The notes beneath the pieces are model-generated. The model ran no database searches. It was given only the letters and a program-made list of their open reading frames with translations, and was not told the DNA's origin. A stretch of 40,299 nt of DNA from a bacterium (GTDB lineage: Bacteria > Verrucomicrobiota > Kiritimatiellia > CAIVKH01), in NCBI GenBank assembly GCA_043802525.1, contig JAZDKY010000134.1, positions 1 to 40,299 on the forward strand. Reading direction: 5' to 3'. Shown in pieces: positions 18,066 through 40,165 of this stretch. Made by a program: the position numbers and the translations under genes. Position 1 is the stretch's first letter; the number at the start of each line of letters is the position of its first letter.

Positions 18066-18074
18066 GGGAGATAC

Positions 18075-23096: not shown

Positions 23097-23116
23097 GCAC
23101 ATGTTACGGTCGCAGT

Positions 23117-25678
23117 ATGGACGAAAGCGTGAACAACAGGGAGACGGTTCGGGCAGAATCCGCCGGCCGACACGAGTTTGCGCTTGAAGCAGGAGACATT
23201 CTCGATCAGTACCGGATTCTCCGCCCGCTCGGCGCGGGCGGGATGGGCGAGGTGTACCTCGCTGAGAACGTCCACAACCACAAACGCTTCGCCCTGAAAG
23301 TCCTCCCCGCCGCGCTCGCGCGGGACCCCCAGTTCGTTGGCCGGTTCAAGGTCGAGTCGCGCGTCATGATGGACCTCGACCACCCGGGCATCGTGCGCGT
23401 CCACCACATTGGCGAAGCTCGAGGGCTCTATTACCTGACCATGGACTTCGTGGAGGGTCCCGACGGCGCGCCCTTTGATCTCGAAGACCTGCTGCGCGAG
23501 CAGGGAGGCAGGATCAAGGACGAAAAGGTCGTTCGGGAACTCGCTCTCCAAATATGTGACGCGCTGGACTATGCGCATCATTTCCGCGGTGAGGGCATTG
23601 TCCATCGTGACCTAAAGCCGGCGAACATCCTGCTGCCCGGAGGACAGAAGACAGAGGACGGAAGACAGATCACGGTCAGAATCAGCGATTTCGGCCTGGC
23701 GAAGGTGGTGGGCGATGCCTATCTGAAGAGCATCATCGAGCGGTCGGTCAGTCTTTCGATCGGCGGTGAAGTCTCTATGGGGGACGAAAAGACCGGAGAC
23801 GGAAGGCCGAAACATCAAAAGACCAGCACGCGGTCCATCCTCGGTACCTATGACTACATGAGTCCCGAGCAGAAGCTTGGCCTGCCCGTCGATGCCCGCA
23901 GCGATATCTACGCGCTGGGCATGATGCTGTACAAGATGCTGACAGGCCGGAAAGCCGAAGGCGCTTACCGGCGGCCCTCGCAACTCGGGTGCGGCAGGGC
24001 GTGGGACTCTGTAGTTGAGCGTTGCATCCAGCAGGCACCCGAAGACCGCTATGCATCGGTGGCGGTACTGCAGAGGGATATTGAAAAAACCACACGGACG
24101 ACACACCGCAGGGCAATCCTGTCACTTATTGGCATAGCTGCCGGTGTACTTCTGGCAGCAGGCTTCCATTTCTTCTTGAACACCTCTAGGTCAAACTTGA
24201 AGGAGTCTGTGACTCAACCTGAACATGGAGTTTCCGATGTATCACTTGGTAGCGCTGCGGATTTGAAGCCCCGTTCTGTCATCGCATCGGGTATTGTTTA
24301 CACTCAGCTTCCAGACGGATTTGTCATTGTTTCGGGCGGCTTGTACATCTCCACAGAGCCTTCCGGCGCGACGGTATCTGTGGACGGGTATGAAATTACA
24401 AATAGCCCCGCAACATTTCGCGACATGGCAGCCGGTTCGCAGATTGTTACGGTCAAACTGGCCGACTACGAGTCGCAAACATTCGACATCGATGTTCCTG
24501 AAGACGATTTTGCGAAGACCAATGTTGTCCTTGTCAGAAAAAAGGGCCTCATCGAAGTCACGAGCCGACCCGCAGGTGCCCAAGTCATGCAGGGATCCCG
24601 CGTGCTGGGTGAAACCCCGATGAGCGCTCGCCTGGAAGTGGGCCCACAAATTTTGACGATTCGCAAATATGGCTTCCGAGATGCTGACGTCCGCGCCGAC
24701 GTCACAGCTGACCTCAAGACGATCGTGTCCGAAGTGACTCTGACGTCAGAGCTCGGCGCTATCCGGATCACGGCACGACCCGCCTCGGGCGAGGGTAAGT
24801 ATTTTGATATTCTGGATAATCGAATCGAGCTTGGTTCCGCAGATCGCAAAATAGAGAACTCGTCCTTCCCGTGTGTGGTGACCGGACTTGCTGTCGGGGC
24901 TATTCAAGTCGCGGTCGCTGTAGACGGATACAAAACAGCAACAAATATGGTGACGGTCGCCGGTGGTCGCACGACGGATACCGAATTCGTACTCGCGCGG
25001 CTTGGTCCCGTTGACGGCGCCGACTGGTCCGTGCCGGGAAGTACGAACTTAACAAACGCTCAAGAGATGGCATATCAGGCTCAGACGAACGGGACAAATC
25101 CATCCTTGGCATCCTCTGTGCAGCTCGTTGCCGATGGGAAACTCCTATTGCGTCAAAACAAGCTTGCCGAGGCGGAGAAGATGTTCCAATCCGTCCTTGG
25201 CCAATCGCCCAACATGCTTGACGCGCGCATCGGCTTGGCGGCCTGCCGGTACAATGCGGGCGATCTGGACCAGGCGCAGCGACTCGTCGGTGACGTACTG
25301 GCCGTAGAAGCGAAGAACGCACAGGCGCTCGGCCTCATGGGTATCATTGCGTGGCGCGAGGGCCGGTACCGCGATGCCGTAGAGATACTCAGCGAGGCTG
25401 TCCGCGCCGACCCGACCGATGCGCAACTGCACAGCTACTTGGGCGTGGCGTTTCAGGCGCGCAAGCGGTACGCCGAAGCCACCCAAGAACTGCGGACTGC
25501 TGTAACGCTGGATCCCAACAACGCGGAGGCCCAGTACAATCTTTCCGTGGTCCTTGCTACGGCCCGCTCGCCTTTGTTGCAGGAAGCCAAGGCACACTAC
25601 GACCTCGCGCTGCAATTGGGGTACCCCCGGGACGACGCGATGGACAAGCTTTTATCAAGGATTCCGCAAGCACATTGA
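23117..25678 (+). CDS. Ser/Thr protein kinase with a transmembrane helix, extracytoplasmic PEGA-like domains and C-terminal TPR repeats.
   Basis: LGAGGMGEVYLA, HRDLKPANILL and DFGLAK. Transmembrane segment AILSLIGIAAGVLLAAGF. PEGA-like GAQVMQGSRVLGETPM..L..G. TPR-like repeats (AEAQYNLSVVLA...). Confidence 0.9.
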   Translation: MDESVNNRETVRAESAGRHEFALEAGDILDQYRILRPLGAGGMGEVYLAENVHNHKRFALKVLPAALARDPQFVGRFKVESRVMMDLDHPGIVRVHHIGEARGLYYLTMDFVEGPDGAPFDLEDLLREQGGRIKDEKVVRELALQICDALDYAHHFRGEGIVHRDLKPANILLPGGQKTEDGRQITVRISDFGLAKVVGDAYLKSIIERSVSLSIGGEVSMGDEKTGDGRPKHQKTSTRSILGTYDYMSPEQKLGLPVDARSDIYALGMMLYKMLTGRKAEGAYRRPSQLGCGRAWDSVVERCIQQAPEDRYASVAVLQRDIEKTTRTTHRRAILSLIGIAAGVLLAAGFHFFLNTSRSNLKESVTQPEHGVSDVSLGSAADLKPRSVIASGIVYTQLPDGFVIVSGGLYISTEPSGATVSVDGYEITNSPATFRDMAAGSQIVTVKLADYESQTFDIDVPEDDFAKTNVVLVRKKGLIEVTSRPAGAQVMQGSRVLGETPMSARLEVGPQILTIRKYGFRDADVRADVTADLKTIVSEVTLTSELGAIRITARPASGEGKYFDILDNRIELGSADRKIENSSFPCVVTGLAVGAIQVAVAVDGYKTATNMVTVAGGRTTDTEFVLARLGPVDGADWSVPGSTNLTNAQEMAYQAQTNGTNPSLASSVQLVADGKLLLRQNKLAEAEKMFQSVLGQSPNMLDARIGLAACRYNAGDLDQAQRLVGDVLAVEAKNAQALGLMGIIAWREGRYRDAVEILSEAVRADPTDAQLHSYLGVAFQARKRYAEATQELRTAVTLDPNNAEAQYNLSVVLATARSPLLQEAKAHYDLALQLGYPRDDAMDKLLSRIPQAH

Positions 25679-25701
25679 TCATTCGCACATGAAGATATTA
25701 T
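25675..25701 (+). promoter_or_regulatory. Candidate sigma70-type promoter (TTGATC, about 15-16 nt, TATTAT) in an AT-rich patch between the kinase stop and the first Snf7-like gene.
   Basis: Hexamers read from the sequence. The spacer is slightly short. Confidence 0.3.
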
Positions 25702-25745
25702 GCGCGTGAATAGGCATCTATTCATGTCTACACTTTGACCTAGCA

Positions 25746-26615
25746 ATGGAGCAGTGCTGCATATGCGGGAAGGATCTGCCGGGCAAGTATTCGCAGCAGA
25801 ACTGTTGCGAGAAGCCCGAATGTAAAAAGCTCTTCTGCGACCTGCACTGGAACCGGAGCAACCGGCTCTGCCGCGAGCACGGGTACCGGGAATTGGCGGA
25901 ACACGGAGGCAAAGATATGACGACGCCCGACCAGGAACCTGCGGCTTCGAAGATCGATCCGAAGCGCGCCAAGAAACTCATGGATGCCACGGTGTCCTTC
26001 GTCAAGAAACTCGGCGCGGGCGCGGCGGATCTTCTCGGCAAGCTCAAGAAGGACAAGTCCCCGCAGGCCATGCTGGCGACGATGGAGCAGTCCATCGACG
26101 CGAACCAGAAACGGCGCGAGGACGTTTCCGGTCGCGTGGAGCGACTTCACAACGAGATTGTCGAGAAGAAGAAAGCCTATGCGACGGCGGCACCGGCCCG
26201 GAAACGTATTCTCGAGGCTGAACTTCGGAGCAAGCTCTCGGAATACAAGGCTTCCGAGCGCGAGCTGAGCGTCCTGCTGGAAAACGAGCGCGTACTTTCG
26301 CAGGTCAAAGGCCGGCTCTACGAGGTCGTGTCGTACGGCATGGCCGGCGTGACGGAAGCACAAATAGACGACGTGATCGACGAGATCGAGGAGGCGGTCG
26401 CCGAAGCCGAAGGCCGCGCGGACGCCTCGCGCGACCTTGAGAAGGCCGGGCGCCGTCGGGAGCGTGAGTCCGACAAGGACGACTTTTTGTCGCAACTCGG
26501 CGAGTTCGGTGGGGACGCGGAACCGTCCGGATTGGACAAGGAGCTTGCCGGTTTTGACGAGCCGGAGCCTGCCGCCGAAAAACCGAAACGGAACAAGGAA
26601 GAACCCGACATCTGA
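25746..26615 (+). CDS. Cys-rich zinc-binding N-terminus fused to a Snf7/ESCRT-III-like helical core with an acidic tail.
   Basis: The segment EKKKAYATAAPARKRILEAELRSKLSEYKASERELSVLLENERVLSQVKGRLYEVVSYGMAGVTEAQIDDVIDEIEE follows the Snf7 pattern (basic hairpin, then acidic C-terminus with an IDDV.D.IEE-like block), by analogy to yeast Snf7/CHMP4. Pattern-based, not searched. Confidence 0.5.
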   Translation: MEQCCICGKDLPGKYSQQNCCEKPECKKLFCDLHWNRSNRLCREHGYRELAEHGGKDMTTPDQEPAASKIDPKRAKKLMDATVSFVKKLGAGAADLLGKLKKDKSPQAMLATMEQSIDANQKRREDVSGRVERLHNEIVEKKKAYATAAPARKRILEAELRSKLSEYKASERELSVLLENERVLSQVKGRLYEVVSYGMAGVTEAQIDDVIDEIEEAVAEAEGRADASRDLEKAGRRRERESDKDDFLSQLGEFGGDAEPSGLDKELAGFDEPEPAAEKPKRNKEEPDI

Positions 26616-26631
26616 TTGCCAGGAGGTCACC

Positions 26632-27261
26632 ATGAGTTTCATGTTCAAGTCCAAGAAGGAGCGGGCCAAAGAGGCGCGCCGTGATCAACGCCAGGCGTTC
26701 CGTCAGGCTGAAAACGCGATCGATGACGTGAAGGAACGTATCAAGCAGATGGACAAGGATGCGAAGAAGCAGTGGGACCAGGCCCGGGAAGCCATGAAAG
26801 CGGGCCAGAAATCCGTCGCGCAGCGCCTGCTCATCAGCTACCGCGCATCGCAGGTGCTCATCACCAAACTCGAGCAGAAGCGTTGGGTGTTTGAGCAGTT
26901 CTTCACCAAGCTGCAGGCCGCGAATTCCGACCAGCAGTTCGCCGACGCGCTGTCCGGCATCAACAAGGTGATCAAGATCGACCCCGAACGTGTCGCCGAT
27001 GTCTTCGATGAAGCCCAAGACCTGCTCGGCGAGCAGCTCGACTCCGATCGCTTCTGGGAGAAGATGTACACCAAGGAAACCGAGGGCGCGACGGCGTCGC
27101 TCGAAGACCATATCCCGTCGCTTGACGAACTCGGCAAGCAGCTTGAGCAGGAAGCCGCGGTGGAGATCGGAGGGGGCGCGACCGAGCGGGTGAACACCGA
27201 GCTGGACTCCCGCATCAAGGCGGGGCAGGAGCGGGTGAAGAAGCTGTTGGACGGCAAGTAG
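26632..27261 (+). CDS. Snf7/ESCRT-III-like protein (CHMP2-like charge asymmetry) with a C-terminal MIM1-like motif.
   Basis: Perfect AGGAGG RBS. Basic N-terminus (KKERAKEARRDQRQ). Core MKAGQKSVAQRLLISYRASQVLITKLEQKRW...KLQAANSDQQFADALSGINKV parallels CHMP2A MAKQGQMDAVRIMAKDLVRTRRYVRKF...KIQTLKSNNSMAQAMKGVTKAM. Acidic tail. Terminal ..QERVKKLLDGK resembles the MIM1 consensus (E/D)xxLxxRLxxL(K/R). Confidence 0.55.
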   Translation: MSFMFKSKKERAKEARRDQRQAFRQAENAIDDVKERIKQMDKDAKKQWDQAREAMKAGQKSVAQRLLISYRASQVLITKLEQKRWVFEQFFTKLQAANSDQQFADALSGINKVIKIDPERVADVFDEAQDLLGEQLDSDRFWEKMYTKETEGATASLEDHIPSLDELGKQLEQEAAVEIGGGATERVNTELDSRIKAGQERVKKLLDGK

Positions 27262-27702: not shown

Positions 27703-30609
27703 ATGGACAAGTCCTTGGGCAGCCGGGATACCACGCCGCCGGATGATCCATCCGGCAGCGATGGCATCAAGAGCGTCGGCGACTGGCAGACGCTGCGGGC
27801 GATGGCCGGGCGGAAGCGGTTCAAGGCCGGGGAGATGATCCTTGGCCGGTACAAGGTCACCGGCGAACTGGGCCAGGGCGGGATGGGTGTCGTCTACCGC
27901 TGCTTCGACGAGGTCGGCGGGATCGACGTGGCGCTCAAGGCGCTGCCGCCCGAACTCTCGCACGATTCTTCGGAAATGGCGGAGGTACGCGAGAACTTCC
28001 AGCTCGTTTCGCGGCTGGTCCACACCAACATCGCCCAGATCCGCACCCTCGATAAGGACCCCGCCACGGGCGACTACTACCTCGTCATGGAGTGCGTGGA
28101 TGGGATCAACCTGCGCGACTACCGGAAGAAGCACGGCGGGAAACTGACGCTCGAACAGGTGATGCGGATCGCCCCGCAGGTGGCCGGGGCGCTCGACTAT
28201 GCGCACGGCCAGAAAATCATCCACAGGGACATCAAGCCCGCCAACGTGATGATCCGTGCCGACGGCACGGTGAAAGTGCTGGACTTCGGACTGGCCGCGC
28301 AGCTTCACACGTCCATGTCGCGGGTCAGCAAGGCCCATTACGGGACCAGCGGCACGGGCCCGTACATGGCGCCGGAGCAGTGGGAGGGCGACTACCAGGA
28401 CGCGGCGACGGATCAGTACGCGTTCGGTGCCTTGGTCTATGAGCTGCTGGCAGGGCGTTGTCCTTTCGAAAGCCACGACTCGGGCGTCCTGCGGCATGCC
28501 GTCCTGCACGGGAAGGCCAAACCGATCGACGGCGTGCCCGCACGGGAAATGGATGCGATCTTGCGCGCGCTGGCGAAGACGCGGGAGGATCGGTTTGCGG
28601 ATTGCGCGGAGTTTGTGGAGGCGCTGGGCGGGGGGAAGATTGAACCACGGAGGACACGGAGTAACGCGGAGGGGAAGAGGAGTGGGGTTCGTGGTTTGCG
28701 GTTGGGGGTTGGGGTGGTTCTGCTCGTGGCCCTTGGCTACGGGTCCCTTGTGTCCCTCAAGTCGCTTTCCGCGCGCCGCGCGGAGGAGCGCACCGCACAG
28801 GACGCCGCGGCGAAGCAGAACGACGCGTCAAAACAGCAGATTGCCCAACTCCAACAGGCCGTCGAGCAGGCACTGACGTCTGGCAATTTGAAGGCCGCGG
28901 GAGAGAGCCTGTCTGACTTGGAGGAACTGGGCGTGCAGATACCGGCCGTGCGTGATCTGAGAGCCCGATACGAAGCAGCCGCGGGCGCACAAGAAGTGAG
29001 GAAGCGGCAGGCAGAAGCGTCGCTGGAATACGAGGCGGCACAGAAACTCGAGCCTGGGCAGGGGTTGGAGAAGAAGCTGAAGGAACTGGAACTGGTCTGG
29101 CGAGAGGCGGAACAGGCGAAGAAGGACGAGGCGTGGGGGCCGGCGCTGACGTCGTACGACCATCTCCTGGGGAAGTGCCGGGAGCTTGGGGAATGGGATG
29201 CGGCGCGCAAAGGCGCGAAGGCGCAGGGCCGGAAGGCGGAAGGCGCAAGACAGTCGGCGTCGGGCAGGAACGCGGAGCGGGATGCCTTGGCGCTATGGAA
29301 TGGCGCGGCCTCGGCGGCCTCGGCCGCAGCGACGGCCTATGAGGCGGGTGATTTTGCGGGCGCTTCCAAGGGTTGGAAGGATGCTGAAGTGAAGTTCCAA
29401 TCTTCGGAGCAGAGGGCTGTCGCGGTGCAGGCATACGGGAAGGCGAAGGCGGACTACGATGCCGCGGCGTCGCGGGCGGACCGGGAACTGCTGGGGCAGT
29501 ACGCCGCAGGCAAGTGGAAGGAAGCCCAGCAGCAGGCCAGGACGGCGGAGCAGTCCGGGGACACGCCGGACGAGGGGCGCCGGGCGTACGAGGCCGCGCT
29601 GGCGGCCTTGGACGCGGCGGTCAAGGAGGCGGAGGAGAAGTCGATCCCGATCCTGAAGGTCACGGCGAAGGCCGACGGAGCAGATGTCAAAGCTACGGTC
29701 AGCGACGGCAAGAGCACGTGGATGACGCCGGTGGAGCTGAAACTGGCGAAGAACCAGTCCTATACGTTTCAAGTAACCTATGCGGGCGGCGGCAAGCGCT
29801 GGAAAGCGGTGCGCGACACCCGAACATCCGATTGGGTGGGCGTGAAGCAGTGGGCGGTGGCGCTGGAGGCGTCGCGAGGGCCCGAGCCGGGCCGGCCGTG
29901 GACGGTGCCGGAGCTGGGGATGGAGTTCGTGCCGGTGGAGGCGGGCAGCTTCCAGATGGGATCGGAAGACGGCCATAACGACGAGAAACCCGTACACGGC
30001 GTGAGGATCACGAAGCCGTTCTGGATGGGGAAATACGAGGTGACGCAGGAGGAGTACCGGAAGATCAGCGGTCAGGCGCCTTCCTACTTCAAGGGCGACC
30101 GGCTGCCTGTTGAGACGGTCAACTGGAACGAAGCCGTTGCGTTCTGCCGCAAACTGACCGAACAGGAGCAGGCGGCGGGGCGGTTGCCGGAAGGGTATGA
30201 ATACCGGTTGCCGACGGAGGCGGAATGGGAGTACGCGGCGCGCGGCGGGACCTTGAGTCGAGGGACGGGGTATGCGGGCGGCGACGATATTGACCGGGTG
30301 GCGTGGTATACGTCGAATAGCGGGAGTACGACGCATGAGGCGGGCACGAAAGCAGCCAATGAGTTGGGCCTCTACGACATGAGCGGGAACGTGTGGGAAT
30401 GGTGCCTGGACGCATATCAGGACAGCTATACGGGCGCTCCGGCGGATGGTTCGGAGCGTACTGGTTCCGGGGCCGTTTCGCGGGTTCTCCGTGGCGGGTC
30501 GTGGCCCGACGATGCGACGTACTGTCGCGTCGCCTACCGCCGCAGGAACGACCCGACGGACTCCTACTACTGCATTGGCTTTCGTGTTGTGTTGGGGGCG
30601 GTCCGTTGA
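27703..30609 (+). CDS. Transmembrane Ser/Thr protein kinase with a C-terminal extracytoplasmic FGE-sulfatase/C-type-lectin-fold domain carrying the DGR variable region. DGR target 1.
   Basis: LGQGGMGVVYRC, HRDIKPANVMI and DFGLAA. Transmembrane segment GVGVVLLVALGYGSLVSL. FGE domain (RLPTEAEWEYAARGG...GNVWEWCLDAY...RVLRGGSW...GFRVVL). VR1 lies at the 3' end. Confidence 0.9.
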   Translation: MDKSLGSRDTTPPDDPSGSDGIKSVGDWQTLRAMAGRKRFKAGEMILGRYKVTGELGQGGMGVVYRCFDEVGGIDVALKALPPELSHDSSEMAEVRENFQLVSRLVHTNIAQIRTLDKDPATGDYYLVMECVDGINLRDYRKKHGGKLTLEQVMRIAPQVAGALDYAHGQKIIHRDIKPANVMIRADGTVKVLDFGLAAQLHTSMSRVSKAHYGTSGTGPYMAPEQWEGDYQDAATDQYAFGALVYELLAGRCPFESHDSGVLRHAVLHGKAKPIDGVPAREMDAILRALAKTREDRFADCAEFVEALGGGKIEPRRTRSNAEGKRSGVRGLRLGVGVVLLVALGYGSLVSLKSLSARRAEERTAQDAAAKQNDASKQQIAQLQQAVEQALTSGNLKAAGESLSDLEELGVQIPAVRDLRARYEAAAGAQEVRKRQAEASLEYEAAQKLEPGQGLEKKLKELELVWREAEQAKKDEAWGPALTSYDHLLGKCRELGEWDAARKGAKAQGRKAEGARQSASGRNAERDALALWNGAASAASAAATAYEAGDFAGASKGWKDAEVKFQSSEQRAVAVQAYGKAKADYDAAASRADRELLGQYAAGKWKEAQQQARTAEQSGDTPDEGRRAYEAALAALDAAVKEAEEKSIPILKVTAKADGADVKATVSDGKSTWMTPVELKLAKNQSYTFQVTYAGGGKRWKAVRDTRTSDWVGVKQWAVALEASRGPEPGRPWTVPELGMEFVPVEAGSFQMGSEDGHNDEKPVHGVRITKPFWMGKYEVTQEEYRKISGQAPSYFKGDRLPVETVNWNEAVAFCRKLTEQEQAAGRLPEGYEYRLPTEAEWEYAARGGTLSRGTGYAGGDDIDRVAWYTSNSGSTTHEAGTKAANELGLYDMSGNVWEWCLDAYQDSYTGAPADGSERTGSGAVSRVLRGGSWPDDATYCRVAYRRRNDPTDSYYCIGFRVVLGAVR
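30470..30609 (+). repeat. DGR variable repeat VR1 (3' end of kinase-FGE gene 1).
   Basis: 140-nt alignment to TR1 shows 12 mismatches, all at TR adenines (examples: ggAAcAac to ggCCcGac; ccAaccgcAAc to ccTaccgcCGc; AAcAAcAAcAtt to TAcTAcTGcAtt). Confidence 0.9.
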
Positions 30610-30664
30610 GGAATGGGTATTGTACTGAGCTTCTGGGCTTCTGTGTTCTGAACTACTGTTTGAA

Positions 30665-30690
30665 AGCGCGCGGAGCGCGCTCGAATTTTT
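30665..30690 (+). terminator. GC hairpin (agcgcgc-gga-gcgcgct) followed by a T5 run, 56 nt downstream of VR1. It is a DGR target-recognition-type hairpin and/or an intrinsic terminator.
   Basis: Read from the sequence. The homologous position after VR2 has ccccgc-gaa-gcgggg. Confidence 0.5.
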
Positions 30691-30737: not shown

Positions 30738-30877
30738 GGGCCGTTTCGCGGGTTCTCCGTGGCGGGTCGTGGAACAACGATGCGACGAACTGTCGCGTCG
30801 CCAACCGCAACAGGAACGACCCGACGAACTCCAACAACAACATTGGCTTTCGTGTTGTGTTGGGGGCGGTCCGTTGA
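30738..30877 (+). repeat. DGR template repeat TR1 (orphan). It is AAC-rich and translates in target frame as [42 protein letters not shown].
   Basis: Identical to VR1 except at 12 adenine positions. It is intergenic. The upstream gggggaccatgaca resembles the avd 3' end (gggggccgggacatgaca) found before TR2. Confidence 0.9.
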
Positions 30878-31045
30878 AGAATCGGACAGCCAGATACCGT
30901 GCGCTTCCCGCGAGAGCGGGTCGCCCGGTCCGTGCAAACCCATTCCAGTTTTGTCCTCCTGATCCCGCCGGCGAGCGGGGCGAAGACGCGGCGCGGGGCT
31001 GGGGCTGGTACCCTGAGGATCTCGAAGGGGAAAGCCCCGGCCCCG
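30878..31045 (+). ncRNA. Conserved structured RNA element 3' of TR1 (DGR spacer-like region). It includes the shared motif ccagatac and the conserved block aagacgcggcgcggggcYggggcYggtaccctgagg..tcgaRggggaaRgccccggc.
   Basis: The same roughly 60-nt block recurs downstream of TR2 (37607..37665). A C/U difference in the 5' strand preserves pairing (G-C versus G.U) with gccccggcccc. Confidence 0.55.
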
Positions 31046-31253
31046 CATGCTCCGCAGCGGGCACGGAATGGCTGCGCAGCACGACGGGCTATGACCGATC
31101 CGCTGGACATCGCCAAGAAGAATATTCCGCGGGCGGGCGACCGCAAGGGGGCATGACAACCCGGCCAGATTCGCGATATGATTGCATCTGAATGGTTCTT
31201 TATATGACGGTGGCGATGTTGATAAGTCTTGCTGGCAAGATGTTCCTTTCCCT

Positions 31254-31870
31254 ATGAAACCGCCCGACAACAGCCTCGGTGGTCAGTCGACAAATCCCGG
31301 CGCGGATCTGCCGGACGGCATCCATTCGATCGGCGACGTCCTGACGCAGCGCCAGCGGAAGCGGTTCAGGGCCGGGGACGTGCTGGCGGGGCGCTACAAG
31401 ATTCTCGGCGAACTCGGGCAGGGTGGGATGGGGTTGGTGTTCCGTTGCCTTGACGAGGTCGGCGGGATCGAGGTCGCCGTGAAGATGCTTCCTCCGGAAG
31501 TCTCGCGCGACACGGGCGAGATGGAGGAGGTCCGTGAGAATTTCCAACTGGTCGCGAAGCTCGCCCACCCGAACATCGCCACGGTCAGGACCTTGGAACG
31601 GGATCCTGCCACGGGCGAATACCTCCTCGTCATGGACAGCGCCGAGGGCGCCAGCCTGCGGAAGTGGCGAAAAGAAGGCGCAGGGGGCCGTCGCACGCTC
31701 GAAGAGATTCTGCCCGTCCTTGAACACGTGGCGTCGGCGCTGGATTACGCGCACGGGCGCAAGGTCGTCCACCGGGATATCAAGCCCTCCAATATCTCAT
31801 GTGGCGCGGGGCACGTGGTTGGAGGTTAGGGCTTGGTGTGGCCGTGATCCTTGCGCTGGGCTGGTGGGGA
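31254..31870 (+). pseudogene. Truncated paralogue of the kinase-FGE gene. It keeps the kinase N-terminal half (near-identical to 33066..33610) and is then internally deleted to a fragment of the transmembrane region.
   Basis: MKPPDNSLGGQSTNPGADLPDGIHSIGDV...HRDIKPSNI, then SCGAGHVVGG*. The downstream ggcttggtgtggccgtgatccttgcgctgggctggtgggg matches the transmembrane-coding segment at about 34061. Confidence 0.75.
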
Positions 31871-31953
31871 AACGTATAAGCACCTCAGCTTCTGTGGTTC
31901 TTTGCCGTTTTCCTCCAACACGACAACCTGATGATTTCCCCTTTAAGCGCGCG

Positions 31954-32211
31954 TCATCGGTACACCTCGCGTCGGTTGCCGATCTTCAAGACCAGCACGA
32001 TCAATTGTCTGTCCCGAACGGTGTAGATGATGCGCCAGTCGCCAACGCGGACACGATACTGGTCATCTTGCCCGCCCAGTTTTTCCACGCCGGGCGGGCG
32101 CGGGTTATCGGCAAGGCTTTCCAGCCTTCGGAGAATCCGGGAATGAACGTCCGGCTGAAGCAGGTCCAACTGCTTGCGGGCCGGTCGCGTGATCGTGACA
32201 GTGTACTTCAA
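31954..32211 (-). CDS. Type II toxin, RelE/ParE family.
   Basis: ...NPRPPGVEKLGG..QYRVRVGDWRIIYTVRDRQLIVLVLKIGNRREVYR is the classic RelE/ParE C-terminus. 4-bp overlap with the upstream antitoxin. The start is probably TTG. Confidence 0.75.
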   Translation of the reverse strand: MKYTVTITRPARKQLDLLQPDVHSRILRRLESLADNPRPPGVEKLGGQDDQYRVRVGDWRIIYTVRDRQLIVLVLKIGNRREVYR

Positions 32212-32474
32212 GCACGGGCCTTGCGAGTGCGCTTATAATCCTCAAGGGTCATCGCGCTTTTTGGATTCCGCTCGTAGTCGCGCAGGGCCTTCAAGGCGTC
32301 GCGGGCATCTGTTGCGTCCTCGAATCGGCGCAGTAGCTCCAAGTCTTTGGCGGAAACCAGCGCCGCGACCGGCGTCCCACGTCGTTCCACTACAATGCGT
32401 TCGCCGCCGTAGGACACTTTATTGATGGCGTCGGCGAAATGGATACGCGCTTCGGCTATGCTTAATATAGTCAT
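32208..32474 (-). CDS. Type II antitoxin, Phd/YefM family.
   Basis: MTILSIAEARIHFADAINKVSYGGERIVVERRGTPVAALVSAKDLELL fits the Phd/YefM fold signature. It is the only opposite-strand gene pair in a long +strand run. Confidence 0.75.
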   Translation of the reverse strand: MTILSIAEARIHFADAINKVSYGGERIVVERRGTPVAALVSAKDLELLRRFEDATDARDALKALRDYERNPKSAMTLEDYKRTRKARA

Positions 32475-32559
32475 GTCCTTCCCCCTCTGTTCATGTACAT
32501 TCCGTACTAAATGTACAGAGTACGGGTGCCGATGTCAAAGGACGGAATCAACGGGCTCG

Positions 32560-32950
32560 CGAAGGAATACCTCATTCCGTTGTGGGGCCAGCTCTTCACC
32601 TTGGCCTTTTTCAGGATGCGTCCACGCCATCTCCGAACGACTGAATTCGGGGCGCAGACGGGTTCCGACTCCCGGCGGTCAACATGGAATGTATACCCTT
32701 GGAATTCTGGGCAAGGCACGTGGCTTCCTCAGAAAGACGCCGGGAACTACAGTTCGAGTTGGGGGGGAATATGTGGGAGCGTTGCGAGGACTACTATGGC
32801 GGCCAGAGTGGCTCCCGTGTTCTTCGCGGCGGTTCTTGGTTCGACGGTGCTTCTGTGACTTTGCTATTGTCGAGCCGTGTCGACGACCTCCCCGGGAGTC
32901 AAAGCGGCGATATCGGTTTCCGCGTGGTGTTGGCTCGTGCTTCGCCTTGA
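32560..32950 (+). pseudogene. Decayed FGE-domain 3' fragment with a degenerate former VR (..[24 protein letters not shown]...IGFRVVLA). It is the remnant of a third DGR target.
   Basis: Recognisable FGE C-terminal motifs in a broken frame. It differs from both TRs at non-adenine positions as well, so it is no longer a homing substrate. Confidence 0.55.
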
Positions 32951-33065: not shown

Positions 33066-35864
33066 ATGACACCGCCCGATAACAGCCTCGGTGGTCAGTC
33101 GACGAATCCCGGCGCGGACCTGCCGGACGGCATCCACTCCATCGGCGACGTCCTGACGCAGCGCCAGCGCAAGCGGTTCAGGGCCGGGGACGTGCTGGCG
33201 GGGCGCTACAAGATTCTCGGCGAACTCGGACAGGGCGGGATGGGGTTGGTGTTCCGCTGCCTTGACGAGGTCGGCGGGATCGAGGTCGCCGTGAAGATGC
33301 TTCCTCCGGAAGTCTCGCGAGACACGGGCGAGATGGAGGAGGTCCGTGAGAATTTCCAACTGGTCGCGAAGCTCGCCCACCCGAGCATCGCCACGGTCAG
33401 GACCTTGGAACGGGACCCTGCCACGGGCGAATACCTCCTCGTCATGGACAGCGCCGAGGGCGTCAGCCTGCGGAAGTGGCGAAAAGAAGGCGCAGGGGGC
33501 CGTCGCACGCTCGCAGAGATTCTGCCCGTCCTTGAACATGTGGCGTCGGCGCTGGATTACGCGCACGGGCGCAAAGTCGTCCACCGTGACATCAAGCCCT
33601 CCAATATCATGGTGTCGCCCGACGGCACGGTCAACGTGTTGGACTTCGGCTTGGCGGCGCAGATCCACACATCGTTTTCCCGCGTCTCGCAAACGAAATA
33701 TGGGACGAGCGGGACGGGCCCGTACATGGCGCCGGAACAGTGGCGCGGGGAATACCAGGACGCGAAGACCGATCAGTATGCGCTGGGGGTGATGACGTAC
33801 GAATTGCTGGCGGGGCGGCTGCCGTTCGAGAGTCATGATGCGTCGGTCTTGAAACAGGCTGTGTTGGACCATGAGCCGACGCCCATCGCGGGGTTGGACC
33901 CTGCTGCGATGGCGGTGCTCCGCCGCGCGTTGGCGAAGAAGCGTGAAGAAAGGTTTGCAAGCTGTGCGGAGTTTGTGGAGGCGCTGGGGGGTGGGAAGAT
34001 TTCACCGCAGAGGACGCCGAGGAACGCAGAGGGAAGGAGGAGTAGATTCGGGGGTTTGTGGTTGGGGGTTGGTGTGGCCGTGATCCTCGTCCTGGGCTGG
34101 TGGGGATGGATGGTATGGCGCCAGGGAAGTGCGCCTGAGGAACAGTCTGCGCGGGTGTCTGCGCAGACGAAGCCGAATACGGCCGCTGAACAGCCAGATG
34201 GGCAAGCGAGCCAAGCGCAGCCGATAACCCTCGAAGATCTGGATAAGTTAGACTTCAGCCCGATAGTCACCCTACCGACATCAGTACGCAATGGCGCCGC
34301 GTACATTGCAACCGACCCGGCGGGGGCGGCGGTTGCGATAGGAGCGGCAGGGAAGACTGCGCCGGCTGAGTTCCTCAATCTTCCTGCGGGCGTGTGTACG
34401 GCGCGGGTATCGCTTTCGGGCTACTACGACACGAGTGTCCTACTCCTCGTCACCGGGGACCGGTTCACCAAAACGAACGTCGTCCTGCGCCGCCACAGCG
34501 GGAAAGTCCGGCTGTCCAGTACGCCAACCGAGGCGGAAATATGGCGGGACGGGCAGAGGCTGGGCATGACGCCCGAGATTCTCGGACCCTTCCCAGCCGA
34601 GTCGATCGTGTTCGAGTTGAAGAAGCCGGGTTACCGCCCGGCGACCGTCACCGTGGAGGTCCGGAAGGACGAAGCCACCGACCGTACCGCGAGCCTCGAA
34701 AAGGCGTCCGGCTGGCTTCGCGTTGTGGCGCAAGGAAGGCCTGCTGGTGAAGCGGGCGAATTGGAGATCGACGGCCGGAGCGTGGGCGTCGTCAAGCTCC
34801 CCTACGTCGCGGGCCCGTTCGATCCCGCGAAGGTCAAGGTGCGCTTCGTCGGCGCAGGCGGCGCGTCGGCGGAGGCCGCAGCCTCCGTGGAGGACACCAG
34901 AACCAACGTGGTCACGCTGGTCTTCGAGGCGCAGCCGAGGGATGGCGAAGACTGGACCGTCAAGAACTTGGGCATGCTGGTGAAGTGGATCCCGGCGGGC
35001 ACGTTCATGATGGGCAGCACGCCGGAGGAACGGGCGTGGGCCGCCGGGTCGGAGGGCAAGGGGCAGAAGGAATGGTTTGCCGGTGAAGGCGATCAGCCGC
35101 GGAGCACGAAGGTGGATCCGGGTTTCTGGTTGGGACAGACCGAGGTCACGCGGGGTCAGTGGAAACAGTTCATGGCAGACAATCCCTCGTTTCGAACCGA
35201 TGCGGAGAAAAGCGGCCAGGCATGGTGCCTTGACATCAAAGGCGACAAGCAATGGAAGCTCATGAAGGGTAAGAGCTGGCGGGATCCGAACTTCGAGCAG
35301 GACGATACGCACCCGGTTGTGTGCATATCGTGGAACGACGCGACCGCCTTCTGCGCTTGGCTGACTCGTAAGGAACGGGACGGCGGCCGCCTCCCGGAGA
35401 GCCTGGTTTACCGCCTTCCATCAGAGGCGGAATGGGAGTATGCCTGCAGAGCGCAAAAGGAGCAGACGCGGTTCTGGTGGGGAGACGCTGTGATGGACGG
35501 AGAAGGGCGAGTGAACGTGGGGGGGACGGAAAAGATGCCGAATGGAACCACTTGGAGCGTGAGCTTCTCGTTTGACGATGGCTGGCCCTACACGGCCCCG
35601 GTGGACAGCTATGGGACCAGAGGGCGCAATGGCTTTGGTTTGGCGGATATGCTGGGCAACGTCTGGGAGTGGTGCCTCGACGGCTGGTCGGAGCAGGGCG
35701 CGCAGGTCCAGGTATACAAGGCCGATGCTTCGCGGCGCGTTGTGCGGGGCGGGTCGTTCAACTTTCAACCCGGTGGCGTCCGTTGCGCGTATCGCGCCAG
35801 GACCGATCCTTCGCTTCCGGACGGCGGCGATGGCTTTCGGGTTGGTCTGGGTGTTTCCCGCTGA
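33066..35864 (+). CDS. Transmembrane Ser/Thr protein kinase with a C-terminal extracytoplasmic FGE-sulfatase/C-type-lectin-fold domain carrying VR2. DGR target 2.
   Basis: LGQGGMGLVFRC, HRDIKPSNIMV and DFGLAA. Transmembrane segment LWLGVGVAVILVLGWWGW. FGE domain (RLPSEAEWEYACRA...GNVWEWCLDGW...RVVRGGSF...GFRVGL). Confidence 0.9.
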   Translation: MTPPDNSLGGQSTNPGADLPDGIHSIGDVLTQRQRKRFRAGDVLAGRYKILGELGQGGMGLVFRCLDEVGGIEVAVKMLPPEVSRDTGEMEEVRENFQLVAKLAHPSIATVRTLERDPATGEYLLVMDSAEGVSLRKWRKEGAGGRRTLAEILPVLEHVASALDYAHGRKVVHRDIKPSNIMVSPDGTVNVLDFGLAAQIHTSFSRVSQTKYGTSGTGPYMAPEQWRGEYQDAKTDQYALGVMTYELLAGRLPFESHDASVLKQAVLDHEPTPIAGLDPAAMAVLRRALAKKREERFASCAEFVEALGGGKISPQRTPRNAEGRRSRFGGLWLGVGVAVILVLGWWGWMVWRQGSAPEEQSARVSAQTKPNTAAEQPDGQASQAQPITLEDLDKLDFSPIVTLPTSVRNGAAYIATDPAGAAVAIGAAGKTAPAEFLNLPAGVCTARVSLSGYYDTSVLLLVTGDRFTKTNVVLRRHSGKVRLSSTPTEAEIWRDGQRLGMTPEILGPFPAESIVFELKKPGYRPATVTVEVRKDEATDRTASLEKASGWLRVVAQGRPAGEAGELEIDGRSVGVVKLPYVAGPFDPAKVKVRFVGAGGASAEAAASVEDTRTNVVTLVFEAQPRDGEDWTVKNLGMLVKWIPAGTFMMGSTPEERAWAAGSEGKGQKEWFAGEGDQPRSTKVDPGFWLGQTEVTRGQWKQFMADNPSFRTDAEKSGQAWCLDIKGDKQWKLMKGKSWRDPNFEQDDTHPVVCISWNDATAFCAWLTRKERDGGRLPESLVYRLPSEAEWEYACRAQKEQTRFWWGDAVMDGEGRVNVGGTEKMPNGTTWSVSFSFDDGWPYTAPVDSYGTRGRNGFGLADMLGNVWEWCLDGWSEQGAQVQVYKADASRRVVRGGSFNFQPGGVRCAYRARTDPSLPDGGDGFRVGLGVSR

Positions 35865-35867
35865 GGC
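35729..35867 (+). repeat. DGR variable repeat VR2.
   Basis: 139-nt alignment to TR2 shows 16 mismatches, all at TR adenines (examples: cAAtcaa to cTTtcaa; tAAcgtAcgAtg to tGGcgtCcgTtg; AtcgAAtccgA to TtcgCTtccgG; cAgcAAcAAtgg to cGgcGGcGAtgg). Confidence 0.9.
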
Positions 35868-35926
35868 ATGGTAGTTGTTCTGTGTCCTGAGCTTCTGGGT
35901 TCTGGTTTCTGAGGTTCTGAAAACTA

Positions 35927-35941
35927 ACCCCGCGAAGCGGG
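35927..35941 (+). promoter_or_regulatory. GC hairpin with a GAA triloop (ccccgc-gaa-gcgggg), 60 nt downstream of VR2 and just upstream of the RT start. DGR target-recognition-type hairpin.
   Basis: Read from the sequence. The segment between VR and hairpin (ctgagcttctggg.ttctg.gtt.ctga) is conserved with the VR1-downstream region. Confidence 0.5.
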
Positions 35942-35952
35942 GCCGAAAATGT

Positions 35953-37014
35953 ATGGCCGTAACCTTCAAGCATCTGTACGCGCAGGTCTGGGACTTCGAA
36001 AACCTGTGGCTGGCTTATCAGAAGGCCCGCCGGGGCAAACGGTATGACGAGCCTGTGGCGAGGTTCGACAGCAACGCGGAGGAGAATATTCTCCAGCTAC
36101 AGTCGGAACTGCGCGACCGCTGCTGGACACCCGGGCCGTACCGCCACTTCTACGTTTGGGAGCCCAAGAAGCGAAGGATATCCGCCGCGCCGTTCCGCGA
36201 CCGCGTTGTGCACCACGCCCTAGTGAACGTGCTGGAGCCGATCTATGAAGCGCGATTCAGCGGTTCTTCGTATGCCTGCAGGAAAGGGAAGGGCACACTG
36301 GCGGCGATGCTCAAGGCGCATTGGGGCGTCCGCAACTGCGCGTGGTTCCTCAAGGGCGATATCGTGAAATTCTTTCCCTCTGTGGATCACGAGGTGCTCC
36401 TGAGCGTTCTCCAGAGGAAGATCGCGGACGTCGATGTCCTGGCGATGATTCGCGTCATCCTCGATTCCGGGCGGGGTGTCTTTGATGATGAGCGGCCGCC
36501 GATGTGGTTCGCGGGCGACGACCTGCTTGCGCCCGCGCTCCGGCCCAAAGGGCTTCCGATCGGCAACCTGACCAGCCAGTTCTTTGCAAACGTCCTTCTC
36601 AACGAACTCGACCAGTTTGTGCACACCCGACTTTCGCCGCGCCTCTATGTCCGCTACAGCGACGACTTCGTGCTTTTCGATCACGACCGCGGCAAGGTGG
36701 AGCCCGTGCGCGGTCCGATCGAGGAGTGCCTTGAGTCGCTGCGCCTGAGGATGCATCCGGGCAAGTCCCATCTTCGGCCTTCCCGGCAGGGGCTCCGGTT
36801 CCTGGGTTTCCGGCTTCTTCCGTCGACGCGAAGGGTGGCTCGCGAAAACCTGACGCGTTTCCGGCGACGTATGCGGACGTGCGGGCATCTGCGGAGGGGA
36901 AATCGAATAACCGTCGCGCGCGTGGGCGCATCCGTGCGTGGCTGGTTGAGTCACGTGGACCATGCGAATGCGTCCGCCGTCACAAGGAGGTTGTTGTCCG
37001 ATGTCCGGTTCTGA
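35953..37014 (+). CDS. Diversity-generating retroelement reverse transcriptase.
   Basis: The hallmark DGR RT motif IGNLTSQFFANVLLNELD is present, as is RYSDDFVLF (catalytic YxDD) and the N-terminal FENLWLAYQKARRGKRYD. The gene sits between a VR and a TR. The in-frame upstream extension to 35875 is unlikely. Confidence 0.9.
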   Translation: MAVTFKHLYAQVWDFENLWLAYQKARRGKRYDEPVARFDSNAEENILQLQSELRDRCWTPGPYRHFYVWEPKKRRISAAPFRDRVVHHALVNVLEPIYEARFSGSSYACRKGKGTLAAMLKAHWGVRNCAWFLKGDIVKFFPSVDHEVLLSVLQRKIADVDVLAMIRVILDSGRGVFDDERPPMWFAGDDLLAPALRPKGLPIGNLTSQFFANVLLNELDQFVHTRLSPRLYVRYSDDFVLFDHDRGKVEPVRGPIEECLESLRLRMHPGKSHLRPSRQGLRFLGFRLLPSTRRVARENLTRFRRRMRTCGHLRRGNRITVARVGASVRGWLSHVDHANASAVTRRLLSDVRF

Positions 37015-37354
37015 TCGCGCGGAATCCCCGCTATTCGTCAAGACAAGGGACTTCATGGGCTGGCTGTTCCAGCACACGGCCAAGTTCCCCAAGGTCTACC
37101 GGCATACGCTGACAAACCGATTGGAAGAAAGTATGCTGGATTTTCATCGCTGTCTTGGTGTCGCCGCGTTGACGGGCGATGAGGTAGCCCTCGCACGTGC
37201 GGACGTCGAGCTGTGGCAACTGCGCCAGCTTCTCCGCTTGGCAAACGACATGGGATTCTTCCCCGCTCGCCTGATGGAGTACAGCGCCCCACGGCTCGCA
37301 GAGCTCGGGAGCCTGCTTGGCGGGTGGCGGAGGAAGACGGGGGCCGGGACATGA
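37001..37354 (+). CDS. avd: Avd-like accessory variability determinant (small basic four-helix-bundle protein). It overlaps the RT 3' end.
   Basis: AGGAGG RBS 10 nt upstream. About 117 aa. ...AKFPKVYRHTLTNRLEESMLD...LAELGSLLGGWRRK resembles Bordetella phage Avd / TIGR02436-type proteins. It lies immediately upstream of TR2. Confidence 0.7.
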   Translation: MSGSDRAESPLFVKTRDFMGWLFQHTAKFPKVYRHTLTNRLEESMLDFHRCLGVAALTGDEVALARADVELWQLRQLLRLANDMGFFPARLMEYSAPRLAELGSLLGGWRRKTGAGT

Positions 37355-37361: not shown

Positions 37362-37500
37362 GTTCGCGGCGCGTTGTGCGGGGCGGGTCGTTCAACAATC
37401 AACCCGGTAACGTACGATGCGCGTATCGCGACAGGAACGATCCATCGAATCCGAACAGCAACAATGGCTTTCGGGTTGGTCTGGGTGTTTCCCGCTGAGG
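37362..37500 (+). repeat. DGR template repeat TR2. It is AAC-rich and translates in target frame as RVVRGGSFNNQPGNVRCAYRDRNDPSNPNSNNGFRVGLGVSR.
   Basis: Identical to VR2 except at 16 adenines. It starts 8 nt after the avd stop. Confidence 0.9.
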
Positions 37501-37665
37501 CGTCGAACTGCCAGATACGGCAAGCCCGCGGCTGCGCCGCGATCCTGCCGTCCGAGCACCTCCATGCCCGTCCCGGCATCCGGATCGCGCCCCTTTGGGC
37601 GCGACAAAGACGCGGCGCGGGGCCGGGGCCGGTACCCTGAGGTTGTCGAGGGGGAAGGCCCCGGC
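37501..37665 (+). ncRNA. Conserved structured RNA element 3' of TR2 (DGR spacer-like region). It is homologous to 30878..31045.
   Basis: Shared ccagatac and the block aagacgcggcgcggggccggggccggtaccctgaggttgtcgagggggaaggccccggc. Stem gccggggcc/ggccccggc. Confidence 0.55.
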
Positions 37666-37718
37666 GTCGCATTCCGAGGCGGGGTTGTGCAGCATGTACG
37701 GCGAGTAAGGAGGTTCTC

Positions 37719-38870
37719 ATGAGTTTTCTCCTCGAAAAGAAACTGGAGCACGAGAGCCTGTGCGAGTCTGACATTCGGGCGGGCCGCGTCGGGAATGCCG
37801 TTTTCCACGCGGCGAAGGCCGCCGAATTCGCGTACGCCCTGGCCGCGCAGACGGCCGGCAACATCGGCCAGCGCTATATTGAGGATGCGGAGGGGTGGTT
37901 GGAGATCGCGGAGAGGCTGCGGACCAGGCCCCCTGTTTCCCGGAAGACGGAGGACGGAGGACGGAAGACGGAGGGAAAGGGGCAGAGGACGAAGGATGAC
38001 GAGCAGGGGCCGGATGATGACTGGCTGGTGACCGAAAAGCCCAATGTCACGTTCGACATGATCGCGGGGATGGCAGAGGCGAAGCAGTCGATCATGGAGA
38101 TGGTGGTGCTGCCGCTCAAATCGCCCGAGAAGGCGAAGGCACTGGGACTGCGGGCCGGCGGCGGCGTGCTGCTATATGGCCCTCCCGGCAATGGCAAGAC
38201 CCTTCTCGGCAAGGCGGTGGCCAGCCAGCTCGACGCGCCGTTCTACTACGCGTCGGGCGCCCAGATACGGTCCAAGTGGCACGGAGAATCCGAGCAGCGG
38301 CTGCGCAAGCTCATCCAGTCCGCGAAGCAGCAATCCGTTGCCGTTCTTTTCCTGGACGAAGTCGACGGACTGCTCCCGAAACGCGGCGGAAATTCCGTCG
38401 TCGATAACCGCTTGGTGACGCAGTTCCTTGCGGAAATCGGCGGGTTCGAGGAATCCGACAATGTGCTCCTGGTCCTTGGGGCGACCAACAAGCCTTGGGA
38501 GATTGACGAAGCCGTTTTCCGGACCGGCCGATTCGACGAAAAGATCTATGTGGGCCTTCCTGACGATCCGGCCCGGCTTGGCATCCTGCACATGCACCTG
38601 GACAAGGTCCCGCTCGGGCCGGACTTCGATTTCGAGAAATGGGCGAAACGGATCGAGGGCTATACGGGAAGCGACATTGTCGGCGTCGTCAACGATGCCA
38701 AGAGATCCGCGCTCAGCAGGAGCATCCGTGAAGAGGGCGATCCGCAACTGACGAATGCCGATCTGGAGGCTGCCTTCAAGACGATACCGTCGTCCGTCAC
38801 ACCGCAACTGCTTCAGCGGTACGAGCAATTCAAGCAGGCACGGTTTGGCCAGCCAAAGGACGTGGCCTGA
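37719..38870 (+). CDS. Vps4-like (meiotic-clade) AAA+ ATPase. It has an N-terminal MIT-like helical domain, a low-complexity linker, an AAA domain and a Vps4-type C-terminal helix.
   Basis: AAGGAGG RBS. Walker A GPPGNGKT, Walker B LFLDEVD. SKWHGESEQRLRKL and LVLGATNKPWEIDEAVFRTGRFDEKIYVGLPD parallel Vps4 SKWLGESEKLVKNL and [30 protein letters not shown]. C-terminal TIPSSVTPQLLQRYEQFKQARFGQ parallels Vps4 [24 protein letters not shown]. Confidence 0.75.
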   Translation: MSFLLEKKLEHESLCESDIRAGRVGNAVFHAAKAAEFAYALAAQTAGNIGQRYIEDAEGWLEIAERLRTRPPVSRKTEDGGRKTEGKGQRTKDDEQGPDDDWLVTEKPNVTFDMIAGMAEAKQSIMEMVVLPLKSPEKAKALGLRAGGGVLLYGPPGNGKTLLGKAVASQLDAPFYYASGAQIRSKWHGESEQRLRKLIQSAKQQSVAVLFLDEVDGLLPKRGGNSVVDNRLVTQFLAEIGGFEESDNVLLVLGATNKPWEIDEAVFRTGRFDEKIYVGLPDDPARLGILHMHLDKVPLGPDFDFEKWAKRIEGYTGSDIVGVVNDAKRSALSRSIREEGDPQLTNADLEAAFKTIPSSVTPQLLQRYEQFKQARFGQPKDVA

Positions 38871-40025: not shown

Positions 40026-40165
40026 CCCTCCCAAGGCGGGCAGGCCCTCCCAAGGCGGGCAGGCCCTCCCAAGGCGGGCAGGCCCTCCCAAGGCGGGCAG
40101 GCCCTCCCAAGGCGGGCAGGCCCTCCCAAGGCGGGCAGGCCCTCCGAAGGCGGGCGGGCCTGGTC
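40026..40165. repeat. Minisatellite: a 19-bp unit (caaggcgggcaggccctcc) in six perfect tandem copies, with a degenerate partial copy on each side.
   Basis: caagg recurs every 19 nt from 40032 to 40127. There are no spacers, so this is not a CRISPR array. Confidence 0.85.

Follow-up and report, generated by a model that had tools for sequence, protein, structure and literature searches.

Decayed DGR target remains around a relE/phd toxin-antitoxin pair: one split gene or two relics?

What lies between two live targets of a DGR, and does it still take part in diversification? The window, meaning the whole stretch of DNA analysed here, is an entire contig of a MAG with a length of 40,299 nt, analysed as assembled sequence. 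Between its first TR module and its second target (Table 1) are found a piece of a kinase gene, a toxin-antitoxin (TA) pair and the end of an FGE domain. A sequence-only reading had explained these as a third target gene split by insertion of the TA cassette. That account holds in so far as decayed target remains, a real TA pair and a former VR are all present. It does not hold where it assumes one gene and a simple insertion. The best explanation is that the interval plays no part of its own in diversification and is a graveyard of DGR targets that holds a standard type II TA operon.

The DGR on the contig includes an RT gene (35953-37014, RVT_1) and a bAvd/Avd gene (36962-37354). VR1 spans about 30478-30612 and VR2 about 35736-35867. 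In both the VR1/TR1 and the VR2/TR2 pair, mismatches within the repeat are confined to TR adenines, so both pairs look active. A module of about 200 nt downstream of TR1 and TR2 is conserved and is common to the TRs of relatives. Between 12203 and 38870, every coding-looking ORF is on the + strand except relE and phd. These had been described as the sole minus-strand genes in a long + run, and they are indeed the only credible ones. Another long minus-strand ORF, at 17952-18596, was rejected as a gene, having no Pfam match and a non-coding GC3.

Table 1. Features of the interval and of the live DGR components around it.
Feature	Position	Strand	Description or basis
Target 1	27703-30609	+	Ser/Thr kinase, transmembrane segment, C-terminal FGE-sulfatase domain (Pfam)
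TR1	30738-30885		directly after target 1
TR1 module	30738..31060	+	TR1 plus conserved spacer-like element downstream; directly upstream of the relics
Relic A, part 1	31254..31796	+	kinase N-lobe, residues 1-181; close target 2 paralogue
Deletion scar and premature stop	31797..31829	+	about 20 scrambled nt; TAG at 31827-31829
Relic A, part 2	31817..31870	+	transmembrane remnant, 54 nt; out of frame with kinase part
Relic A, probable part 3	31871..31953	+	degraded post-VR 3' flank, 83 nt; CTCAGCTTCTGTGGTTCT ... TTTAAGCGCGCG
relE-type toxin gene	31954..32211	-	85 aa, full length; PF05016
phd/yefM-type antitoxin gene	32208..32474	-	88 aa; PF02604, TIGR01552
Predicted TA promoter/operator region	32475..32540	-	consensus matches
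Relic B, frame 0	32658..32759	+	middle of FGE/CLec domain (NVYPW...AGNYSSS); tblastn
Relic B, frame 2	32753..32950	+	C-terminal FGE/CLec part (...IGFRVVL); contains former VR
Former VR (VR-equivalent)	about 32813-32950	+	138 nt, end of relic B
Target 2	33066..35864	+	kinase-TM-PEGA-FGE; VR2 at 3' end; live; donor or paralogue of relic A
TR2	37363-37501		after avd

The left part of the interval, relic A, begins as a near-copy of target 2, as the sequence-only reading had noticed. Aligned with that gene by blastn, both the kinase and the transmembrane (TM) fragments are clearly homologous to it. Over 31254-31796, relic A is 96.5% identical to the opening 543 nt of that gene (33066-33608), with 19 mismatches and no gaps, and 177 of the 181 residues of the protein are the same. 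Homology begins at the ATG; the sequences upstream are unrelated.

The copy was also said to be internally deleted and then broken off, and the alignment bears this out. A stretch of 444 nt in the target 2 equivalent (33609-34052) has been swapped for a 20-nt scar, and the join is out of frame. After HRDIKPSN the reading frame is shifted, and it soon runs into the premature stop. Beyond the scar, 31817-31870 is 87% identical to the TM segment of target 2 (34053-34106). By tblastn this remnant matches residues 319-347 of target 2, in a frame other than that of the kinase piece.

In relic A, the Pkinase profile (Pfam) is matched at positions 1-129 only, of 263. The GxGxxG motif, the VAVK lysine and the HRD motif are kept, and the catalytic domain is incomplete: DFG, the activation loop and the entire C-lobe are missing. 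Because it lacks DFG and the C-lobe, the product of 31254-31829 cannot be a kinase. In the NCBI annotation the piece is a 191-aa protein kinase (P0121). Its ORF has an intact start codon, and a sigma-70-like promoter is found upstream of it, at 31153-31182.

The differences between relic A and target 2 carry a record of selection. All 19 fall at codon positions 2 and 3; 15 are synonymous and four nonsynonymous, giving a dS of 0.12, a dN of 0.010 and a ratio (omega) of 0.08. A model in which one lineage was neutral throughout, the fragment having been a pseudogene from the duplication onward, predicts some 60% nonsynonymous changes and is rejected (p < 0.001). Comparison with outgroup kinases assigns N107S and E150A to the target 2 lineage, which leaves one or two nonsynonymous changes on the relic lineage. 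Roughly twenty amino-acid changes would be expected there under neutrality (our own calculation from the numbers of the dN/dS test). Purifying selection thus acted on relic A during almost the whole time of its divergence, and its inactivation is recent. Duplication of a target followed by inactivation, as originally proposed, is therefore supported and can be refined: the copy was selected for a long time and died only recently.

The same numbers could be read as a sign that the stump is alive. In that case the 191-aa protein, an N-lobe without the rest, would be retained and expressed, for instance as a decoy or as a regulator of target 2 signalling. The low omega, the one or two nonsynonymous changes, the intact start codon, the sigma-70-like promoter and the NCBI gene call would all suit such a protein. 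Low omega is explained equally well by recent inactivation, however, and the protein has neither DFG nor an activation loop nor a C-lobe, so that it could not act as a kinase. Its last 10 residues are frame-shifted after a scrambled junction. The only comparable short kinase ORF in a relative, P0127, is on a contig full of broken ORFs. Since half of the catalytic domain is gone, ongoing selection on the stump is unlikely, and a retained function for it is improbable overall.

A low dN/dS could also result if the kinase piece came from the orthologue of another strain. Divergence of 3.5%, mostly synonymous, is typical of orthologues in co-occurring strains too, and in a contig of MAG origin a strain variant of target 2 might have been mis-joined. 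Both sides of the repeat, however, carry unique sequence unlike the flanks of target 2, and the repeat is left by way of scrambled sequence that leads to another segment of target 2, not adjacent to the first. This is not how a mis-join caused by a repeat looks. An assembly artefact is thus the least probable of the explanations weighed here, and recent death of a real paralogue is the reading followed below.

The right part of the interval, relic B, is the end of an FGE domain. Over 32684-32950 it matches FGE-sulfatase at E 5.2e-6, above the Pfam cut-off, at profile positions 180-254 of 255. It thus lies where a VR would be found, at the 3' end of a domain with the CLec/FGE fold. The degraded tail had been placed at 32560-32950. 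Only the part from 32658 onward can be demonstrated; homology upstream, in 32560-32657, is not significant and gives no Pfam signal.

Among 5.8 billion proteins, the closest to the tail are two short metagenomic C-termini. One of them (P0190, named a Ser/Thr kinase by JGI) is 56% identical to it, and the other (P0191) 49% in the database search and 53% by tblastn. Identity to the FGE ends of the live targets is lower at the protein level, with 38% for target 1 and 34% for target 2. By tblastn, 32658-32759 matches P0191 at 2e-6 and P0190 at 8e-5 in a frame that differs from the remainder of the tail. The matches to the two proteins thus fall in two frames, 32658-32759 and 32720-32932, with about 26 codons missing between them. 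Homology in two frames with some 26 residues lost makes the tail itself a frameshifted pseudogene. The frame switches near 32750, an in-frame stop lies upstream, there is no N-terminal part, and the tail belongs to no intact target ORF. GC3 periodicity is 0.63 in the tail against 0.73 in the live FGE ends, a difference of about two standard errors given that the tail has 99 codons.

Adenine content provides evidence for the past of this tail. In the VR stretch it is 9.4%, compared with 11.9% in VR1 and 8.3% in VR2; the TRs have adenine fractions of 0.215 (TR1) and 0.205 (TR2). The background in coding windows of the contig is 20.8 +/- 3.9%, and only 0.06% of 135-nt windows are as poor in adenine. 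Past mutagenesis at adenines would be expected to leave such a depletion, which supports a former rather than a current VR. An assignment as TR instead of VR was rejected, the tail being adenine-poor.

Against TR1, 50 of 133 aligned positions are mismatched, including 17 of the 28 A positions and 33 of the 105 others, and there are indels as well; TR2 fits worse. The earlier description of a former VR that now differs from the TRs at non-A positions is thus accurate. Continued service by TR1 or TR2 was rejected because of the non-A mismatches and the indels. A cognate TR with adenine-only differences from 32813-32950 was not found in the contig, where nothing else resembles the tail. The conserved 3' end (IMH) of the live VRs is absent, the 3' end of the tail diverging from both TR/VR pairs. 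Downstream of the tail there is no hairpin; 121 nt folded no better than shuffles (z +0.37). As adenine-poor as the live VRs, yet with 33 non-A differences from TR1, this stretch is best described as an orphaned former VR. Relic B is located 3 kb from RT/Avd. Neither relic can be diversified or can signal.

The TA pair between the two relics looks complete. A RelE/ParE and Phd/YefM pair had been predicted on the opposite strand, and both genes are confirmed there. The toxin matches ParE_toxin (PF05016) over residues 5-84 at 3.4e-13 (50.4 bits, cut-off 23). Its match to TIGR02385 RelE_StbE (1.3e-4, 22.4 bits) is below the cut-off of 27.9, so that the call of RelE versus ParE as subfamily depends mainly on the best PDB matches, which are RelE structures (2khe, 1wmi and RelE 4fxe/4v7j). 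Homologues number 9056 representatives at E <= 0.001, with end-to-end alignment; thousands are 84-90 aa long, and the best is 61% identical. The antitoxin matches PF02604 at 1.1e-12 (48 bits, cut-off 29.8) and TIGR01552 at 6.2e-11 (41.5 bits, cut-off 20.8). Neither the toxin nor the RT ORF, read from its start at TTG, had an exact match on record.

In the operon the antitoxin gene precedes that of the toxin, and the two share TTGA, in which the antitoxin stop overlaps the TTG start of the toxin. GAAGGA is found just ahead of the antitoxin ATG. Upstream is a putative sigma-70-like site with a -35 of TTGACA (32538-32533), a 17-nt spacer and a -10 of TACATT (32515-32510), matching the consensus at 10 of 12 positions. 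A perfect palindrome of 8+8 nt, TGTACATT/AATGTACA (32494-32517), contains TGTACA and overlaps the predicted promoter. This TGTACA palindrome presumably resembles the operators of yefM-yoeB. Overlap of promoter and palindrome is the usual arrangement for autoregulation, and the pair may be regulated in this way. Judged from its sequence, it would be an active and ordinary type II module.

If the cassette had simply been inserted, traces of the event might be visible around it. The target-site duplications that the sequence-only reading had suggested looking for were not found; direct and inverted repeats flanking the pair are likewise absent beyond chance-level matches of 8-18 nt. No transposase or integrase gene lies between 30610 and 33065. 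The pair shows no compositional signature of foreign origin, its GC and GC3 being within the host range. Some 2 kb of the gene body has also been lost. With neither target-site duplication nor inverted repeat, this loss means that the TA cassette replaces sequence and is not a simple insertion.

Whether the two relics were once a single gene depends in part on the 83 nt that separate the TM remnant from relE. Behind every VR in this DGR clade (in the window and in L012, L009 and L006) a conserved element is found. It consists of the stop codon, GAGGAATG, a run of CTG-containing pentamers and a GC hairpin with a GAA/GAG loop. Behind VR1, VR2 and the VRs of relatives, the hairpin is GC-rich, has a loop of 3 nt and lies 55-65 nt after the stop codon. 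The flanks with these GC hairpins fold better than shuffles, with z -2.6 for post-VR1 and z -2.9 for post-VR2.

The sequence at 31871-31953, CCTCAGCTTCTGTGGTTCT...TTTAAGCGCGCG, resembles these two flanks. By local and chained alignment its score is reached by 1-2 of 2000 dinucleotide shuffles. When the two flanks are scored jointly, it ranks first among about 9,900 sliding windows on both strands of the contig. The match reaches into the hairpin as far as its left arm (31945-31953) and breaks off exactly at the relE stop codon; the right arm is absent. Models built by nhmmer from relatives recover post-VR1 (1.2e-8) and post-VR2 (5e-4); neither these nor profiles that include the two flanks of the window report 31871-31953 at E < 10. 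Since nhmmer misses the stretch and pairwise tests alone support it, the assignment to relic A of its own post-VR 3' flank is no more than suggestive. If relic A has its own 3' flank, the FGE tail would derive from another gene.

The pieces also differ in ancestry, which points in the same direction. Identity to target 2 is 96.5% and 87% in the 5' remnants; the tail is 34-38% identical to the live targets and 56% identical to P0190. The TM match reaches 87% despite the poor conservation of that segment, and it argues against one gene. Together with the apparent 3' flank of relic A, this discordance makes two relics more likely than one split gene.

The alternative is that there was one third kinase-FGE target, the middle of which was hit by the TA cassette, and that the kinase and TM remnant and the tail are its two ends. 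Kinase, TM and FGE tail are collinear on one strand with fitting spacing, tandem kinase-FGE targets occur in L012, and one deletion fewer is needed. Moreover, 31871-31953 matches the post-VR flanks over a short, degraded stretch, which profile searches miss. Nevertheless, the best match to a post-VR flank in the whole contig is placed after the TM remnant and ahead of the TA pair. At 34% identity to the FGE end of target 2, the tail belongs with the subfamily of P0190. A recently functional gene should moreover be accompanied by its cognate TR, but the tail is matched by none. With the missing gene body and the lack of target-site duplications or inverted repeats added, a single gene split by insertion is rather unlikely. 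That relics A and B were separate genes with the TA pair between them has roughly an even chance of being correct and is preferred here.

Comparison with relatives could reveal a third target that is still whole, or the site without the TA pair. The collections searched contained no close relative: scans of genome and metagenome contigs with the RT gave 31-60% identity, and the best RT identity in the protein database is 69%. The contexts of P0002, P0004, P0028, P0127 and P0156 show the usual layout of the clade. All five are too distant, and neither an intact third target nor an empty TA site is visible in them.

The best-conserved neighbour is L012, the RT of which is 59% identical. Its order is two intact tandem kinase-FGE targets, RT, Avd, a TR1-type TR, a 229-aa gene, Snf7 and an AAA ATPase, and there is no TA pair at this place. 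The 229-aa gene is homologous to the 289-aa ORF at 25746-26615 of the window. From the layout of L012, tandem targets are normal for the clade. The comparison also indicates that the locus in the window is rearranged, with the DGR block between Snf7 and the AAA gene and TR1 detached from RT/Avd.

A course of events can be proposed for the reading with two relics. Relic A (31254-31953) would be a gutted close paralogue of target 2, of which 181 codons, the TM remnant and probably the post-VR flank survive. Two deletions of microhomology type, one of some 0.44 kb and the other of some 1.8 kb, may have taken the kinase C-lobe, the ectodomain, the FGE domain and the VR. Before that, the gene would have been a functional, selected target almost since its split from target 2 (dS about 0.12), to be destroyed recently. 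Relic B (about 32658-32950) would be the frameshifted 3' end of a different FGE target, with a VR that was once mutagenised at adenines. The relE/phd pair would fill the space from the hairpin of relic A to the middle of the FGE domain of relic B, where the 5' part of gene B belongs. Illegitimate recombination with replacement of sequence, and not transposition, probably brought it there, and it would now act as an ordinary autoregulated module.

A more general idea is that the post-VR hairpin or cruciform is a fragile site, which captures foreign DNA and seeds microhomology deletions, so that target arrays turn over there. The join of relE/phd at the hairpin loop (31953/31954) would then be an example caught in the act, and the TA pair may protect what remains of the array. 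This is a speculative idea and improbable as a whole. Modules such as the relE/phd pair are common, and no observation here ties this one functionally to the DGR or speaks for the role in stabilising the locus that the sequence-only reading had suggested.

One contig thus shows a multi-target DGR array, with two TR modules and two live kinase-FGE targets, gaining and losing targets. One paralogue went through long selection and recent destruction; of another, only an adenine-depleted fossil VR without template is left. Useful details are the signature of recent death, the adenine-depleted fossil VR and a possible breakpoint in the post-VR hairpin. Adenine depletion could serve as a simple marker of former VRs. 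For annotation, the 191-aa "protein kinase" and the 88-aa FGE ORF here are best handled as pseudogene fragments.

Several known systems can be compared with this interval. The TA pair is like the type II RelE/ParE and Phd/YefM systems, such as RelBE and YefM-YoeB of E. coli, in having overlapping genes (88 + 85 aa) with the antitoxin first. Further examples of the type are Pyrococcus aRelE (PDB 1wmi) and M. tuberculosis RelG (Rv2866, PDB 3g5o). The Pfam and TIGRFAM matches fit this type, and the toxin has a RelE-like C-terminal RREVY. Nothing distinguishes the pair from such systems; its location within a DGR target array is unusual, without demonstrated meaning.

A hairpin or cruciform downstream of the VR that supports DGR retrohoming has been described for the Bordetella phage BPP-1. 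Similarly, VR1, VR2 and the VRs of relatives precede a GC-rich hairpin. It differs in its distance from the stop codon, behind the run of CTG-containing pentamers, and at 31945-31953 the left arm alone remains, adjoining the TA cassette.

Kinase-domain DGR targets are listed in a survey (type b12; PMC5758913), the kinase domain is among the DGR target domains of PMC10907252, and regulatory DGR targets of cyanobacteria are the subject of PMC7517822. Relic A is a paralogue of a target with kinase and FGE/CLec domains, namely target 2, and relic B ends in the same RGGSW...GFRVVL module, depleted of adenine like a VR. Unlike such targets, both relics are disrupted, with truncation, frameshifts and a premature stop, and relic B is without TR partner, IMH-like match and downstream hairpin. 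The decayed target material and the TA pair together amount to routine turnover of genes in a system of known kind, and not to a new system.

Two complete TR modules are found in the window, against a single RT/Avd pair. TR1 lies directly 3' of target 1, with neither RT nor Avd alongside it, and it is the TR1-type TR that relatives keep (76% identity between TR1 and the TR of the related locus L012). The ~200 nt that follow each TR are conserved between both window copies (74 nt at 85%), and L012 and a second relative, L009, share them in their TR regions. This conserved stretch probably represents the spacer of the DGR RNA.

A second conserved element follows the VRs of this DGR clade, in the window as well as in L012, L009, and L006. 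Its parts, in order, are GAGGAATG, a tract of 5-10 CTG-containing pentamers (TTCTG/GCTGA), and a GC hairpin whose loop is GAA/GAG; some copies also contain a T-run. A profile made from the relatives recovers the two copies in the window, at E 1.2e-8 and 5e-4.

Coordinates of features in the window and at related loci
Feature	Locus	Coordinates	Remark
TR1 module	window	30738-31060	
TR2 module	window	37363-37685	
Post-VR element	window	30610-30690	
Post-VR element	window	35865-35945	
Post-VR element	L012	6685-6800	
Post-VR element	L012	9813-9930	
Post-VR element	L009	5366-5490	
Post-VR element	L006	3807-3920	
Kinase-PEGA-TPR protein	window	23117-25678	no FGE domain
Kinase-FGE DGR target	L012	4516-6684	
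Conserved gene cluster	window	12203-27261 + 37719-38870	
Conserved gene cluster	L012	1-14467	
19-nt repeat	window	40026-40160	near contig end
Y1 transposase gene (IS200/IS605-type)	L006	4082-4498	target-RT interval
Gp49/HigB-like + HTH_3 pair	L006	8548-9154	3 kb downstream

The window DGR sits within a conserved gene cluster that encodes a Band7/double-zinc-ribbon protein, an FHA protein, several Ser/Thr kinases, a 289-aa protein, a Snf7/ESCRT-III-like protein, and a CdvC/Vps4-like AAA ATPase. In L012 a 229-aa homologue of the 289-aa protein, Snf7, and the AAA gene are all contiguous; in the window a 10.4-kb DGR block separates Snf7 from the AAA gene. Close to the contig end lie 7.1 copies (98% identity) of the 19-nt unit CCCTCCCAAGGCGGGCAGG, which ORFs of both strands translate into repetitive peptides.

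Because the upstream kinase-PEGA-TPR protein, which lacks FGE, has a kinase-FGE DGR target as its nearest L012 counterpart (kinase 42% identity), domain swapping between relatives, or loss of the diversified module, is suggested.

The closest kinase relatives of the relic, the kinase N-lobe remnant beside relE/phd, lie on JGI Ga0496406_006289 (L015/L016; 75% nucleotide identity). Many short broken ORFs are spread over several kinase genes of this contig, which is probably an error-rich assembly. Its 196-aa 'kinase' is therefore no evidence for a conserved truncated form.

The related DGR locus L006 (RT 68% identical) carries both the transposase gene and the Gp49/HigB-like/HTH_3 pair, so other DGRs of the clade also have mobile and TA-like genes nearby.
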